Virus record (IMG/VR): IMGVR_UViG_2648501392_000001
Coordinates: 1 to 6,675 of that record
Direction: 5' to 3' (one strand)
DNA length: 6,675 nt
From: a virus
Taxonomy: Duplodnaviria; Heunggongvirae; Uroviricota; Caudoviricetes
Under the pieces are notes generated by a model that had not been told where the DNA came from, did not search any database, and worked only from the letters and a program-made list of their open reading frames with translations. The stretch's first letter is position 1. Each line of letters begins with the position of its first letter. The position numbers were made by a program, and so were the translations under genes. Positions 1,825 through 6,675 of the stretch are shown piece after piece.

Positions 1825-1882
1825 ATCTCACCTCAAATAAGTGGTTTGCTGCCTAATTTCATTTTCTGGCGACCAACACAAG

Positions 1883-2266
1883 TCACCTCGCCGTCAGTTG
1901 TTTGGATTTCCGGTAGCCTGCCGCGTAAATGGCTACGTTTGGAAGACATACACCAGTTTCTGGTTGCTTATGTCCAAACTCATTCGCGTACACAATGGCC
2001 GCTCGCTCCAGATTGCGTCTGTATTCTTTCTGTTGCCAGATCACGTCTTGTGCCATGAACTTAATTGGCTTAGCGTCTTCTATACGCTCAGGCGTTTCGT
2101 GAGTACCTTTAGCCTGAATCTGCGCTCTGCTTAGAGTAGGGCGGTGTAATACTTCTGAACTTATTGCTTCTTCGCGGGCCAGTACGCCATTAGCTAATGC
2201 CTTTACCTTTAAACGCTCACGACGACGAGAACGTGAATTGCCTTTGAACTGAGTTCTGCGTGTCAT
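1883..2266 (-). CDS. N: N-type transcription antitermination protein, 127 aa, P22 gp24-like
   Basis: It is the first gene downstream of pL/nutL. ATG 2266..2264 has a strong SD (AGGAGG, 5-nt spacer). The N-terminal arginine-rich motif GNSRSRRRERLKVKALA resembles the P22 N motif GNAKTRRHERRRKLAIER, and the C-terminus VAIYAAGYRKSKQLTAR resembles P22 gp24 VALYAAGHRKSKQITAR (both from memory). Confidence 0.85.
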   Translation of the reverse strand: MTRRTQFKGNSRSRRRERLKVKALANGVLAREEAISSEVLHRPTLSRAQIQAKGTHETPERIEDAKPIKFMAQDVIWQQKEYRRNLERAAIVYANEFGHKQPETGVCLPNVAIYAAGYRKSKQLTAR

Positions 2267-2279
2267 ATAGACCTCCTGA

Positions 2280-2420
2280 TGAACTTTGGTGGTGTGGTAG
2301 GTGGGAGACCCATTTCGACCTGTTTCGGCCTACTTCAATTCGGCAATAGTCCCGCAGGCTTCGCCGCTTTACGTGCGACATATTCCCGTCCATGAACCCT
2401 TCACCACACCCCAAAGTTCA
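2280..2420 (-). promoter_or_regulatory. Long-range inverted repeat in the N leader, a candidate RNase III-type processing or translation-control stem
   Basis: 2280-2298 (TGAACTTTGGTGGTGTGGT) is the reverse complement of 2403-2420 (ACCACACCCCAAAGTTCA) apart from one bulged base. The 3' arm ends directly next to the N SD at 2271-2276. Confidence 0.5.
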
Positions 2421-2431
2421 CTTTGGTTATT

Positions 2432-2446
2432 GCGCTTTGTCAGCGC
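2432..2446 (-). promoter_or_regulatory. nutL boxB hairpin (P22-type, GACAA loop)
   Basis: Minus-strand RNA reads GCGCUGACAAAGCGC: a 5-bp stem with GACAA pentaloop, matching the P22 boxB I recall. It lies between pL and N. CTACG sits immediately 5' of it, as at nutR. Confidence 0.75.
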
Positions 2447-2506
2447 CGTAGATTCATATTCGAATCGTTGTATATTCACCGCCCTGGTGAGTAGTGCGTC
2501 CTGCTG

Positions 2507-2600
2507 ATGGCTTAAAGATAACCTAGGTTATAGTGGTGGTCAATAACTTAATTTATGGATTCTGATAAATAAGTTATATGTGATGGATAATAAAGGTATT
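2507..2600 (-). promoter_or_regulatory. OL operators and pL promoter (leftward)
   Basis: Operator-like palindromes at 2518-2531 (ATAACCTAGGTTAT, perfect), 2543-2556 (ATAACTTAATTTAT), 2566-2578 (ATAAATAAGTTAT) and 2587-2600 (ATAATAAAGGTATT), the same family as the sites between cI and cro. Candidate pL on the minus strand: -35 TTGACC (complement of 2538-2543), 17-nt spacer, -10 TATCTT (complement of about 2515-2520). Confidence 0.6.
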
Positions 2601-2717
2601 TTATTTTTGTAAATGTTGCGGATTGGTCGGTATTGGAAGGGGGGCGCTGTATTGCTGTCGTGTTGGTTCGTGGTTTACCGCATTTGCGGCTGTTAAATAT
2701 GGGGGACGATCGCGAGG

Positions 2718-2746
2718 CAAAGAAAACCCGGCGCGGAAGCCGGGTT
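2718..2746 (-). terminator. Rho-independent terminator (minus strand) downstream of the 44-aa ORF
   Basis: Minus-strand RNA AACCCGGC-UUCCGC-GCCGGGUU followed by UUCUUUG: an 8-bp GC-rich stem with a U-rich tail, 16 nt after the ORF stop. Confidence 0.65.
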
Positions 2747-2762
2747 TGAGATTTAGTTATTT

Positions 2763-2897
2763 TCAGCAGCTCGGATAAGAGCGGAAGTGCTGACGAACAT
2801 GTTCGAGCTCACCGAAACGTATGCGGCAGTAACTGCGCACATAAACCGGCTTGTCGTGTTCGTAGATGAAGTCATCGCGATTAACATCGTGAGCCAT
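2763..2897 (-). CDS. Small hypothetical protein, 44 aa (MAHDVNRDDFIYEHDKPVYVRSYCRIRFGELEHVRQHFRSYPSC)
   Basis: ATG at 2897..2895 is preceded by SD AGGAGA with a 7-nt spacer; stop TGA at 2765..2763 is followed by an intrinsic terminator. This frame is not in the supplied ORF track (too short). It contains several His and Cys residues. Confidence 0.55.
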   Translation of the reverse strand: MAHDVNRDDFIYEHDKPVYVRSYCRIRFGELEHVRQHFRSYPSC

Positions 2898-3045
2898 AGC
2901 TTTTCTCCTGTTTTTGTATACAGCCTGTTTACCCGAACAGGTTGTAGTTTGTTGGGAGAACCGCTATCCTTGGCTTGCGGTTGCCAAGGGTGTAGCGGTA
3001 GGTAATCCTCCATACACTTCGGAAATACTGGATATATTTCCGACC

Positions 3046-3080
3046 CAAAAAGCCCCGTTCCCTCGGGGCTTTATTCTTTT
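3046..3080. terminator. Bidirectional rho-independent terminator, the tIMM-equivalent ending the cI operon
   Basis: GCCCCG(3052-3057)-TTCCCT-CGGGGC(3064-3069). On the minus strand it is followed by UUUUU (complement of A-run 3047-3051), immediately after the 177-aa ORF stop at 3071-3073. On the plus strand it is followed by TTTATTCTTTT (3070-3080). Confidence 0.75.
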
Positions 3081-3604
3081 GTTCCGCCATCAATCATCGC
3101 AAAAGATTCCACAATCAGACTGATACGCTTGGCTTCATCTTTTGTCAGGTCGCGAGGCAGGTTGCCAATGGTGACGATAAGATCTCCGCGCAATGGAATC
3201 GGCAGTTCAAATGTTTTTACACCAACCTGTACGTCAGCTACCGCCTTCTTCTTAGGTGCCATCTTTTTACGCTCCTTTTTTTTATTTACATCACCAACTG
3301 ACACATTAATCTCACCATTCTGGTAGGAGATAAATTTATCAATAGCACTTTGCATTCGGCTTTTGTATGCCTGCAAAGATGATTCAGAAGGTTTGCTTTC
3401 TGCTGAGTCTGCGTACGAACTTGCTAAGTTGGCAACGCTATAATCACGGATATCGGCATCGGTGAAATCCGACCCAAGAACAGTAAGAAGGCGCAGGGAA
3501 GAGTCACGGAGATTGCGGGCTGTAGCATCATTGACGATACCAAGCTCAGGAAGCATCTGTAAGAAGTCCTGAAATGCTTTGATGGTGTAGCTTTTGGTTT
3601 GCAT
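3071..3604 (-). CDS. Hypothetical protein, 177 aa, distal gene of the cI-linked cassette (rexB-equivalent position); two-domain layout with a lysine-rich linker
   Basis: ATG 3604..3602 with SD GAGG and a 7-nt spacer; the stop abuts the terminator. The protein has a central KKKERKKMAPKKK linker separating an N-terminal domain of about 105 aa from a C-terminal domain of about 55 aa. No obvious transmembrane segment. Family not recognised. Confidence 0.7.
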   Translation of the reverse strand: MQTKSYTIKAFQDFLQMLPELGIVNDATARNLRDSSLRLLTVLGSDFTDADIRDYSVANLASSYADSAESKPSESSLQAYKSRMQSAIDKFISYQNGEINVSVGDVNKKKERKKMAPKKKAVADVQVGVKTFELPIPLRGDLIVTIGNLPRDLTKDEAKRISLIVESFAMIDGGTKE

Positions 3605-3793
3605 AAAAAAGCCTCATACAGTTGATGAGGCAATACTAATTTGATCGTCAAAACAAATCAAGACCCAAGAAACGATCGTTGATTCCTTTCTTTGTGACAA
3701 TACAGTCAAATCAAGTTTTACAAGGATTACTTTTCTTCGATTACATTAAAGGCCGCACTTCTGCGACCATCCATCACCAAAATGTCTCTTCAC

Positions 3794-4135
3794 TCATCCG
3801 AAGAAGCAGCAATCCGGGTCAGCACGCACAAGCTCAAGCGCATCAGTCAGCGAAAGTTCAGTACTGTACTGATGCCATTTCATATCCTTCCGCATCCAAT
3901 AGATTTTCCATCTATCCAGAGAACGTATGTACTTGATTCTTGCTGATGGCAGGATGTTTGTTTCACCTGGGTTGCCCTGCCACACGGGGCGCTGTTCGCC
4001 GATATCTATCGTTTGGTCATTGATGCTATAAACAATATCCAGTTCATTGCGGATATGTTCAGGCGGCCTTATGCTTTCAATGAATTGGTGAACTTCTTTT
4101 TTGACCGCTTGATATTCAAGGTCAGTGAACGCCAT
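3794..4135 (-). CDS. Hypothetical protein, 113 aa, proximal gene of the cI-linked cassette (rexA-equivalent position)
   Basis: ATG 4135..4133 with strong SD GAGGAGG and a 4-nt spacer, only 37 nt downstream of the cI stop on the same strand, so it is probably co-transcribed from pRM. Family not recognised. Confidence 0.7.
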   Translation of the reverse strand: MAFTDLEYQAVKKEVHQFIESIRPPEHIRNELDIVYSINDQTIDIGEQRPVWQGNPGETNILPSARIKYIRSLDRWKIYWMRKDMKWHQYSTELSLTDALELVRADPDCCFFG

Positions 4136-4172
4136 CTATCCTCCTCACCCAAACGTTTCTTCAGGCCACTGG

Positions 4173-4880
4173 TTACCAGCTATGCGATGACCAGAATACT
4201 CTGCCAATAATCCTTACGGTTTTATGAAATTCATCTCTATCCATTACTTCATCCGGGTACTCTTCGCGATTTATTGATCTGATTATCACCGATGTAGGAG
4301 TGGCGATTAATGTTTTTACTCGCAACAAATCAGACTGGCAAATAGCGTAGGTTTTACCATCTCTGATGGTGGTATCTTGTGTGTTAACACCAACAACATC
4401 GCCATCGTGAAGAGTTGGTTCCATGCTTTGACCTGTTACCCTTACCAGCTTGGCAGAACTTTCAGTTACCCCCATCTTTTTCAGATAGTACTTTCTGAAA
4501 ACCAAAGAGAACTCTGATGATTCTTCTATCTCGCAGCTACCGCTTCCAGCCGAAAGCGAAACGTTAAGAAGAGGCAATGCGACAAACTCGTCATCGTTTT
4601 TTTTAATGTCTTCCCATACCACAGCTTTTAAAGATGACTCACGGATATTGGATGGTTCTTCATGTGTACCATCCCTCATTTCACCAATACCAGAACTAAG
4701 CCATTCAGGGCGTACTTTTAAAGCATTAGCTAACTCAACCATCTTGCGAGATCCGTTTGTTTTACCGGATGACATCTTCTGTATGGCTGGCTGAGATATT
4801 CCAACCATGTCCGCAAGCTGTGATTGCGACACCCCTGCCGATCTCATGGCTGCATTTAGTCTTTCTGCGAATGTTTTCAT
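4173..4880 (-). CDS. cI: CI-type prophage repressor, 235 aa: N-terminal HTH plus C-terminal S24 (LexA-like) autopeptidase domain
   Basis: Translation contains an HTH region (QSQLADMVGISQPAIQKM), an Ala-Gly cleavage site (SLSAGSG), the serine motif GQSMEP and a downstream Lys (LLRVK). It is divergent from cro across an operator-rich region. I chose ATG at 4880 with no SD (leaderless, as for lambda pRM transcripts) over the in-frame TTG at 4910. Confidence 0.9.
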   Translation of the reverse strand: MKTFAERLNAAMRSAGVSQSQLADMVGISQPAIQKMSSGKTNGSRKMVELANALKVRPEWLSSGIGEMRDGTHEEPSNIRESSLKAVVWEDIKKNDDEFVALPLLNVSLSAGSGSCEIEESSEFSLVFRKYYLKKMGVTESSAKLVRVTGQSMEPTLHDGDVVGVNTQDTTIRDGKTYAICQSDLLRVKTLIATPTSVIIRSINREEYPDEVMDRDEFHKTVRIIGRVFWSSHSW

Positions 4881-4991
4881 ATCCACAAATCTATAACTAC
4901 GGTTATCCAAAGTAAAATAATAAAGGTTATTGCTATCTTTTATAACTTGGGTTATCCTTGGTTATAAGTAATGGCTGAAAGAGGTATGCTC
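4881..4991. promoter_or_regulatory. OR operators with divergent pRM (leftward) and pR (rightward) promoters
   Basis: Three 14-bp palindromes of the ATAAC-N4-GTTAT family at 4893-4906 (ATAACTACGGTTAT), 4916-4929 (ATAATAAAGGTTAT) and 4942-4955 (ATAACTTGGGTTAT), spaced 23 and 26 bp, plus an extra GGTTAT half-site at 4960-4965. Candidate pRM on the minus strand: -10 TAGATT (4888-4893), start at the cI AUG, -35 TTTACT (4911-4916). Candidate pR -10 TATAAG at 4964-4969; the pR -35 is ambiguous. Confidence 0.65.
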
Positions 4992-5216
4992 ATGAATTTA
5001 GTAATTCACCGAGCCTTGAAGATTGTCGGTAGTCAAAAGCGGCTTGCCGACAAGTGTGGTGTAACGCAGCCAGCAGTACACAAATGGCTGAAAGGCGGGC
5101 AGGTTTCTCCAGAGAAAGTTACCGCCATCGTTAACGCCACTGGAGGGCAGATCAAGGCTTACGAAATTCGCCCAGATTTACCACACCTGTTTCCAAAACC
5201 GAATCAGGCAGCATAA
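4992..5216 (+). CDS. cro: Cro-type HTH repressor, 74 aa
   Basis: It is divergent from cI and first on the rightward operon. ATG 4992 is preceded by SD AAGAGG with a 7-nt spacer. HTH-like segment QKRLADKCGVTQPAVHKWLKG. The sequence is unlike lambda Cro, so this is a different immunity type. Confidence 0.8.
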   Translation: MNLVIHRALKIVGSQKRLADKCGVTQPAVHKWLKGGQVSPEKVTAIVNATGGQIKAYEIRPDLPHLFPKPNQAA

Positions 5217-5254
5217 GTAACACCGCTATTTTCACAATGGACATTCGTCCTACG

Positions 5255-5269
5255 TCGCTGACAAAGCGA
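5255..5269 (+). promoter_or_regulatory. nutR boxB hairpin (P22-type, GACAA loop)
   Basis: TCGCTGACAAAGCGA between cro and cII, with the same loop and CTACG 5' flank as nutL. A candidate boxA-like CGCTATTTT lies at 5224-5232 but is weak and uncertain. Confidence 0.7.
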
Positions 5270-5342
5270 GCCCCAAGATATCTGACCAACTAAGGCCATA
5301 TGTGTTTCCACGCATACCTTTCAACTAACTATTCACTATTGG

Positions 5343-5377
5343 AAATATTAAGAAATGACACAAACAAGTTACAGCAA
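5343..5377 (-). promoter_or_regulatory. pRE-like CII-activated promoter (leftward), overlapping the cII start
   Basis: Minus strand reads TTGCTGTAACTTGT (complement of 5364-5377; a TTGC-N6-TTGT CII box), then 12 nt, then TTAATAT, then TTCC. This has the same architecture as lambda pRE (TTGC-N6-TTGC, 12 nt, TAAGTAT, TTCC) from memory. Confidence 0.55.
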
Positions 5378-5651
5378 ACTATCCCAGCGCGACGTTGATC
5401 GCGCAGAAACGGATTTACTCATCAACCTGTCAACGCTTACCCAGCGCGGTCTGGCAAAGATGATTGGCTGTCATGAATCGAAGATAAGCAGAACGGACTG
5501 GAGATTTATTGCTTCGGTCCTGTGTGCTTTCGGAATGGCATCAGACATCAGTCCGATTAGCAGGGCTTTTAAGTATGCGCTTGATGGAATCACCAATAAA
5601 AAACGCCCGGCGGCAACCGAGCGTTCTGAACAAATCCAGATGGAATTCTGA
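5355..5651 (+). CDS. cII: CII-type transcriptional activator, 98 aa, chimeric: non-lambda N-terminal region with the lambda C-terminal 19 aa
   Basis: The C-terminus TNKKRPAATERSEQIQMEF is identical to the lambda cII C-terminus from memory; the first 79 or so residues differ. Position between nutR and O matches. Confidence 0.85.
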   Translation: MTQTSYSKLSQRDVDRAETDLLINLSTLTQRGLAKMIGCHESKISRTDWRFIASVLCAFGMASDISPISRAFKYALDGITNKKRPAATERSEQIQMEF

Positions 5652-5673
5652 GGGAATTACTGGATCAATCCAC
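5597..5673 (-). ncRNA. oop: oop antisense RNA (about 77 nt), with its tO terminator at 5597-5623
   Basis: The minus strand across 5597-5680 reads ...GACTCCTGTGGATTGATCCAGTAATTCCCTCAGAATTCCATCTGGATTTGTTCAGAACGCTCGGTTGCCGCCGGGCGTTTTTTATTGGTGA, near-identical to the lambda tO/oop region I recall (hairpin GCCGCCGGGCG plus U6). It is antisense to the 3' end of cII. Exact ends are estimated by analogy with lambda. Confidence 0.7.
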
Positions 5674-5682
5674 AGGAGTCAT

Positions 5683-5711
5683 TATGACAAATACAGCAAA
5701 AATACTCAACT
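5683..5711 (-). promoter_or_regulatory. pO promoter driving oop
   Basis: Minus strand: -35 TTGAGT (complement of 5706-5711), 17-nt spacer, -10 CATAAT (complement of 5683-5688), placing the start near 5675. Confidence 0.55.
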
Positions 5712-6622
5712 TCGGCAGAGGTAACTTTGCCGAACAGGAGCGTAATGTGGCAGATCTCGATGATGGTTACGCCAGACTATCAAATATGCTGATTGAGGCT
5801 TATTCAGGCGCAGATCTGACCAAGCGACAGTTTAAAGTGCTGCTTGCCATTCTGCGTAAAACCTATGGGTGGAATAAACCAATGGACAGAATCACCGATT
5901 CTCAACTTAGCGAGATTACAAAGTTACCTGTCAAACGGTGCAATGAAGCCAAGTTAGAACTCGTCAGAATGAATATTATCAAGCAGCAAGGCGGCATGTT
6001 TGGACCAAATAAAAACATCTCAGAATGGTGCATCCCTCAAAACGAGGGAAGTTCCCCTAAAATGAGGGACATCCCTCAAAACGAGGGAAAATCCCCTAAA
6101 ACGAGGGATAAAACATCCCTCAAATTAGGGGATTGCTATCCCTCAAAACAGGGGGACACAAAAGACACTATTACAAAAGAAAAAAGAAAAGATTATTCGT
6201 CCGAGAATTCTGGCGAATCCTCTGACCAGCCAGAAAACGATCTTTCTGTGGTTAAACCGGATGCTGCAATTCAGAGCGGCAGCAAGTGGGGAACAGCAGA
6301 AGACCTGACCGCCGCAGAGTGGATGTTTGACATGGTGAAGACCATCGCACCATCAGCCAGAAAACCGAATTTTGCAGGGTGGGCTAACGATATCCGCCTG
6401 ATGCGTGAACGTGACGGACGTAACCACCGCGACATGTGCGTGCTGTTCCGCTGGGCATGCCAGGACAACTTCTGGTCCGGTAACGTGCTAAGTCCGGCCA
6501 AACTCCGCGACAAGTGGACCCAACTCGAAATCAACCGTAACAAGCAACAGGCTGGCGTGACAGCTGGAAAACCAAAACTCGACCTGACAAACACTGACTG
6601 GATTTACGGGGTGGATTTATGA
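5684..6622 (+). CDS. O: Replication initiator O, 312 aa, with the origin iterons inside its coding sequence
   Basis: ORF-track protein MTNTAKILNFGRGNFAEQERNVADLDDGYARLSNM...TDWIYGVDL is near-identical to lambda O from memory. SD AGGAG is 5 nt upstream of ATG 5684. The stop overlaps the P start (ATGA). Confidence 0.95.
   Translation: MTNTAKILNFGRGNFAEQERNVADLDDGYARLSNMLIEAYSGADLTKRQFKVLLAILRKTYGWNKPMDRITDSQLSEITKLPVKRCNEAKLELVRMNIIKQQGGMFGPNKNISEWCIPQNEGSSPKMRDIPQNEGKSPKTRDKTSLKLGDCYPSKQGDTKDTITKEKRKDYSSENSGESSDQPENDLSVVKPDAAIQSGSKWGTAEDLTAAEWMFDMVKTIAPSARKPNFAGWANDIRLMRERDGRNHRDMCVLFRWACQDNFWSGNVLSPAKLRDKWTQLEINRNKQQAGVTAGKPKLDLTNTDWIYGVDL
6032..6200. repeat. Replication origin: six O-binding iterons (6032-6156) followed by an A-rich tract (6157-6200)
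   Basis: Iterons TCCCTCAAAACGAGGGA-like at 6032-6049, 6052-6069, 6071-6088, 6091-6108, 6115-6132 and 6138-6156, each an internal inverted repeat, spaced 19-24 bp. Then cacaaaagacactattacaaaagaaaaaagaaaagattattcg. Confidence 0.85.
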
Positions 6623-6675
6623 AAAACATCGCCGCACAGATGGTTAACTTTGACCGTGAGCAGATGCGTCGGATC
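6619..6675 (+). CDS. P: Replication protein P (DnaB helicase loader), N-terminal part only; the gene runs off the right edge
   Basis: Translation MKNIAAQMVNFDREQMRRI matches the lambda P N-terminus from memory; start overlaps the O stop. Confidence 0.9.
   Translation, partial: MKNIAAQMVNFDREQMRRI

Follow-up and report, generated by a model that had tools for sequence, protein, structure and literature searches.

An in-frame 39-bp duplication gives a lambda-type replication origin within gene O six iterons, as in Stx phages

In bacteriophage lambda, the replication origin is placed inside gene O, with gene P downstream, and the O protein recruits DnaB through P. Any in-frame change in the iterons of such an origin alters both the cis-acting sites and the initiator that binds them. 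The window, i.e. the whole 6,675-nt stretch of viral DNA that was analysed, carries an origin of this kind with six iterons, whereas lambda has four. A sequence-only reading of the window attributed the surplus to a 39-bp tandem duplication, which would have changed the origin and the linker of its initiator in a single step, and suggested that the strength or copy control of the origin might be affected. This raises the question of whether the duplication is genuine, whether it is new, and what two additional iterons and 13 additional residues could contribute to the initiation of replication.

The window contains a lambdoid early region on the plus strand, comprising cro (4971-5216), cII (5355-5651), O (5684-6622) and P (from 6619). 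The 312-residue product of O matches the Pfam family Phage_rep_O (PF04492) over residues 22-115 (E=1e-35; score 122 bits, cut-off 28.7), and the ATG of P at 6619 overlaps the stop codon of O, with 57 nt of P inside the window and the rest beyond it. With all iterons within the O coding sequence and an AT-rich region beside them, the origin and O of the window constitute a lambda-type replication module. An Rfam scan gave no match in the origin region, and a PDB sequence search with O found no solved relative. The features are as follows, with the evidence for each in brackets:

5684..6622, plus strand: gene O, replication initiator of 312 aa, with the origin inside (ORF list, Pfam, identity to 933W)
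6031..6069, plus strand: left 39-bp unit, the diverged copy, containing iterons 1 and 2 of six (Tandem Repeats Finder; gap in the lambda alignment)
6070..6108, plus strand: right 39-bp unit, identical to lambda iterons 1-2 with the preceding C (alignment)
6032..6049, plus strand: iteron 1 of six, ATCCCTCAAAACGAGGGA (coordinates carried over from 933W 'ori iteron 1')
6052..6069, plus strand: iteron 2 of six, termed 1' by Kozlowska et al., TTCCCCTAAAATGAGGGA (repeat search, 933W annotation)
6071..6088, plus strand: iteron 3 of six, the counterpart of lambda iteron 1 (repeat search, 933W annotation, lambda alignment)
6091..6108, plus strand: iteron 4 of six, the counterpart of lambda iteron 2 (repeat search, 933W annotation, lambda alignment)
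6115..6132, plus strand: iteron 5 of six, the counterpart of lambda iteron 3, in its Stx-type form '3*' with A in place of G (alignment, PMC7466680)
6138..6155, plus strand: iteron 6 of six, the counterpart of lambda iteron 4 (repeat search, 933W annotation, lambda alignment)
6157..6199, plus strand: AT-rich region of the origin, duplex opening (lambda alignment)
6619..6675, plus strand: start of gene P, helicase loader and partner of O (sequence; same position as P of 933W and lambda)

The iterons are roughly 18 bp long and imperfectly palindromic, each with arms TCCCTC / GAGGGA as read from the sequence, and their six copies occupy 6032-6155. A repeat search recovered them as six 17-nt copies with starts at 6032, 6052, 6071, 6091, 6115 and 6138, i.e. 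with start-to-start spacings of 20, 19, 20, 24 and 23. When up to 3 mismatches are allowed, the consensus iteron has 4 matches in the window, all of them in the origin block, against a chance expectation of 0.02 (200 shuffles). Tandem Repeats Finder delineated a period-39 array at 6031-6108 (2.0 copies, 92% matches, 0 indels, score 135), and a base-by-base comparison of 6031-6069 with 6070-6108 gave 36 identical positions out of 39, with 3 mismatches. Each unit contains two iterons and two further iterons follow both units, which makes six. In the earlier reading, the units had been drawn at 6032-6070 and 6071-6109, i.e. moved by one base to the codon start; in that frame 35/39 positions agree, in keeping with the identity of about 90 percent and the two iterons per unit that it had reported. 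The first iteron (6032-6049) is the farthest from the AT-rich region and has the same sequence as the third, and the second (6052-6069) is the most diverged of the six. Directly to the right of the iterons, the A+T content reaches 78% in the 40 bases from 6160. In the translated ORF, the duplication appears as a 13-aa tandem repeat, IPQNEGSSPKMRD / IPQNEGKSPKTRD, at residues 117-129 and 130-142 of O, as had been described.

Alignment with lambda bears out the 39-bp insertion. Lambda O (NC_001416, 38686-39585) comprises 900 bp and 299 aa, with four annotated iterons, exactly as the sequence-only reading had stated. The two origins agree in the iteron sequences, the spacers, the AT-rich region (0 differences over 6157-6199) and the N- and C-terminal parts of O, whereas lambda lacks the 39-bp unit and, with it, two of the iterons and 13 residues of the initiator. 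The DNA alignment of the origin region contains one 39-bp gap, in lambda, and two other differences, namely the G-to-A change in iteron 5 (TTAGGGG in the window, TTGGGGG in the corresponding iteron 3 of lambda) and one base farther downstream. The protein alignment likewise contains one 13-residue gap in lambda, together with the substitutions Gly17Glu, Leu37Ile and Ser282Gly (lambda numbering); in the O protein of the window the respective residues are Glu17, Ile37 and Gly295. The difference in length between the two proteins corresponds to precisely one 39-bp unit, and both alignments uphold the claim that the cis-acting site and the initiator protein were changed by one event. As for the manner in which the unit was duplicated, we looked for microhomology at the unit ends and found that the run of identity stops exactly at the borders, the flanking base being mismatched on either outer side. 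Had lambda iterons 1 and 3 simply recombined by unequal crossover, the duplication would measure 44 bp instead of the observed 39 bp, and this route was rejected.

Assemblies notoriously go wrong at short tandem repeats, and the array could in principle be a collapsed or expanded repeat produced in sequencing or assembly, an argument that contains nothing specific to this window. It could also be a new event private to this genome, i.e. a fresh origin variant, which is the impression that the earlier comparison with lambda alone would give. Both possibilities are contradicted by the distribution of the duplicated block. When IMG/VR was scanned for exact matches to the left flank of the iteron block, at least 120 stretches were obtained. 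Among the matches listed, the fetched sequences (including the window, 933W and lambda) have an iteron block of 86 bp in 91 cases and of 125 bp in 24, the latter being the length found in both the window and 933W. At least 23 fetched IMG/VR loci carry the 125-bp, six-iteron block. The 86-bp block is accompanied by a 299-aa O in 83 IMG/VR loci and the 125-bp block by an intact 312-aa O in 21, again among the matches listed, and in at least 4 IMG/VR loci the O gene is identical to that of the window at the DNA level.

The block is also widespread outside IMG/VR. A 121-nt query spanning the duplication matches 1327 records of complete E. coli genomes, at least 319 of them at 99% identity or more, and 133 records of a phage collection, at least 65 of them at 99% identity or more; this identity band (at most 1 mismatch to the duplicated block) can be reached by six-iteron forms only, and the counts obtained with it are lower bounds. 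A count at 80% coverage or more of the same query was discarded as a means of separating the two forms, because BLAST joins the pieces on both sides of the 39-bp gap and four-iteron origins therefore also score about 100% coverage. Besides, the two units of the window differ at 3 positions, and the reading frame is open throughout a full-length O, which also counts against an assembly error. The divergence between the units, 3/39 in the window and 4/39 in 933W, set against the 20/900 bases at which O of the window and O of lambda differ outside the insertion, argues that the duplication, as judged from these sequences, is not recent. The block thus recurs in independent records, among them those of 933W and VT1-Sakai, and its copies have diverged, which excludes both alternatives: we assign a negligible probability to an artefact, and an origin of the duplication in this genome alone is practically out of the question, the more so since the arrangement is annotated in the 933W record and has been described in print.

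O of the window is nearly the same as that of 933W (AF125520 / NC_000924). The two genes are identical at 938 of 939 nt (99.9%), both encode 312 aa, and the six iterons, the AT-rich region and the overlap with the start of P are shared; an O gene 99.9% identical to that of the window is present also in about thirty other Stx phage records. Six O-binding sites, 'ori iteron 1' to 'ori iteron 6', are annotated in GenBank record AF125520 at positions homologous to those given above. The same allele as in 933W occurs in P27, P22, P32, PA28, AU5Stx1, VT1-Sakai and BP-4795. According to Kozlowska et al. 2020 (PMC7466680), the replication regions of Stx phages have 6 iterons compared with 4 in lambda, the two additional iterons give rise to 13 additional residues of O, and the substitutions Gly17Glu, Leu37Ile and Ser282Gly as well as the base of iteron 3* are listed as differences of the Stx phages; the first such comparison is credited there to Nejman et al. 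2009 (J Mol Microbiol Biotechnol 17:211). All marks of the Stx type on that substitution list, i.e. Glu17, Ile37, Gly295 and the iteron 3* base, are present in the window. We consider it highly probable that the origin of the window is a lambda-type origin in the 'Stx-phage' six-iteron allele, as in 933W, P27, VT1-Sakai and many E. coli prophages, and we have met no evidence contrary to this explanation.

The six-iteron origin is thus already known, being present in the GenBank record of 933W and having been characterised experimentally between 2009 and 2020. The sequence-only reading was right about the structure, and the values that it had given for lambda were correct; however, the finding is not new, because close relatives of lambda (933W, P27, VT1-Sakai, BP-4795 and numerous further Stx phages and prophages) already have this arrangement, which in part is a circumstance that the reading itself had named as one that would speak against it. 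Induced Stx prophages amplify their toxin genes by replicating, and the properties of the origin are thereby relevant to the virulence of EHEC, which is why the six-iteron origin had been studied before.

How the origin would work can be outlined from related systems. O dimers wrap the iterons into an O-some and open the AT-rich region in supercoiled DNA, according to PMC7466680 and to the review PMC5043065; the latter adds that at later stages more proteins stabilise the opened state, allowing the host helicase DnaB to load. The same review allows a comparison with the iteron-type origins of plasmids (P1, R6K, RK2, pSC101), in which the repeats that bind the initiator also form an array next to an AT-rich unwinding element, whereas the iterons of the lambda type are palindromes bound by O dimers and lie within the coding sequence of their own initiator. 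For lambda, P27 and 933W, binding of O to the iterons and opening of the origin have been shown experimentally (PMC7466680). By analogy with lambda and with the experiments on 933W and P27, we propose that the 39-bp block with lambda iterons 1 and 2 was duplicated long ago, in tandem and in frame, whereby the origin gained two O-binding sites on its flank away from the AT-rich region and, by the same event, O gained 13 residues just past its N-terminal DNA-binding domain. With its palindromic iterons bound by dimers of O, the DNA would be bent and wrapped into an O-some, which would open the adjacent AT-rich region at 6157-6199, after which O would recruit the P-DnaB complex. The four AT-proximal iterons would form a strongly occupied core, and the two distal ones would serve as weak auxiliary sites that raise the local concentration of O or stabilise the O-some; as proposed in PMC7466680, the distal pair would compensate for a lower affinity of the Stx-type O for iterons.

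Most of the bench work that the earlier reading had suggested is already in print. Gel shifts have been run on both four- and six-iteron templates, and DMS footprinting revealed efficient occupancy only at the four AT-proximal iterons, the two distal ones being weakly bound and iteron 1' being among the weakest (PMC7466680). It may be argued from this that the extra iterons are an essentially neutral polymorphism, in which the four AT-proximal iterons do all the work and the 13 residues are harmless in a flexible segment. The four- and six-iteron alleles are both common together with an intact O, the segment of O encoded by the iterons is polar and predicted to be unstructured, and lambda tolerates the loss of one iteron, its growth being normal with only three (Moore et al. 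1981, as cited in PMC7466680), which makes the contribution of the extra sites in the whole phage uncertain. On the other hand, no transformants were obtained with plasmids derived from P27 in which iteron 1, iteron 1' or both had been mutated (PMC7466680 Table 2), plasmids derived from Stx phages are reported to differ from lambda plasmids in the regulation of replication (Nejman 2009, 2011, as cited in PMC7466680), and the left unit has been kept across many genomes with few variant positions. Neutrality therefore appears unlikely to us, and a role of the distal pair as auxiliary sites is preferred. By the same analogy with the studied phages, the published binding and replication behaviour presumably also holds for the allele of the window, which has Ser at position 123 of O.

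Three IMG/VR loci homologous to window 6031-6156 (L038, L063 and L105, the last with its match at 463 on the minus strand) have blocks of other lengths, and O is truncated in 3/3. A block of 109 bp resulted from a 23-bp duplication of lambda iteron 3 with its spacer, which gives five iterons and breaks the frame of O; in a block of 59 bp a deletion has left three iterons, with O truncated; and in a block of 19 bp a deletion has left a single hybrid iteron, likewise with a truncated O. These three variants look like origins of decaying prophages, and changes in the number of iterons evidently recur. Forms with eight iterons, which would encode a 325-aa O, were not seen among the matches listed for the fetched IMG/VR loci. 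In this small sample of fetched loci, and among the matches listed, the sole change of length that goes with an intact O is the in-frame 39-bp insertion, which illustrates the double constraint on origin and protein.

That out-of-frame changes of iteron number were found only with truncated O proteins (fetched loci, among the matches listed) is also what one would expect if the selected effect of the duplication were on the protein, i.e. a longer tether from the part of O that binds DNA to the part that binds P, with the DNA sites as a by-product. Every in-frame change at this locus alters DNA and protein together, and the insertion starts only two residues past the end of the Phage_rep_O domain as delimited by Pfam. 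However, point mutations of the iterons designed to abolish binding of O gave no transformants, which indicates a role at the DNA level, and the predicted secondary structure suggests that the extra residues do not join the contacts with DNA (PMC7466680). We regard a purely protein-level advantage as quite improbable and retain the additional binding sites as the preferred explanation, with the reservation that the published data leave the DNA effect of the two extra sites and the protein effect of the 13 residues unseparated.

The sequence-only reading had placed the 13-aa repeat in the linker between the domains of O, a placement that is plausible. The repeat lies just past Phage_rep_O, and residues 117-200 of O are 82% polar or disorder-prone and 15% hydrophobic. 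A single-sequence AlphaFold2 model likewise has no predicted secondary structure over residues 103-204, though its confidence is low (mean pLDDT 41.9), so that it tests the placement weakly. These features would fit a flexible stretch between two domains. However, the origin-binding fragments of lambda O that have been defined biochemically reach past residue 116, so the insertion may be located at the edge of the DNA-binding fragment rather than in a pure linker.

The single difference between O of the window and O of 933W is at position 6050, where the window has A and 933W has G. It replaces Gly123 by Ser and turns the 2-bp spacer of the distal iteron pair from GG into AG. The base at 6050 is the only element of the origin that lies outside published work, and the allele itself is already present in public genomes. 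The A allele was found in 7/24 sequences with the 125-bp block, the window counted, among the matches listed, and also in E. coli 2014C-3011 and in the prophage of strain F8704-2; the exact iteron-block sequence of the window, with AAGTT in the first spacer, recurs in at least 6 other loci of IMG/VR. It is conceivable that the A at 6050 changes the weak occupancy of the distal iterons, and hence the firing of the origin, in a prophage sub-lineage whose immunity region is not that of 933W, but we consider such an effect very doubtful.

Beyond the replication module the window is a mosaic. Its segments 376-2507 and 5204-6675 match 933W at 97-98%, whereas 2508-5203 is unlike 933W, which indicates that the six-iteron origin travels with an immunity region other than that of 933W. 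In particular, cI (4173-4910, minus strand) and cro do not match 933W, so that the immunity regions differ over 4173-5216, and in place of the 933W segment with the stk kinase the window has a hypothetical ORF of 177 aa (3071-3604, minus strand) with its flanking sequence. Thus, the element that hosts the origin may be an Stx phage but need not be one; stx would be located several kb downstream of the end of the window, which falls in gene P. The best overall match is a prophage of E. coli O39:NM F8704-2 (NZ_CP050998.1, 1305331-1311792), with 99.6% identity over 1832-6675. It shares with the window cI, cro, cII and a 312-aa O with six iterons and Ser123, and differs from it in ten bases in the 3' part of O, which change one amino acid (Gly295 in the window, Ser in the prophage), and in the interval between cIII and N. 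There, the F8704-2 prophage has an Nmad5-family gene instead of the minus-strand ORFs 835-1203 (122 aa) and 1354-1824 (156 aa) of the window, which correspond to ssb/Ea10-like and L0079 of 933W; this exchange marks a further recombination joint between cIII and N. On the minus strand, the stretch 718-776, which lies upstream of the cIII-like ORF (623-763), matches the Rfam family Lambda_thermo, the thermoregulator of the cIII mRNA, over its full length, with 88.5 bits against a gathering score of 50.
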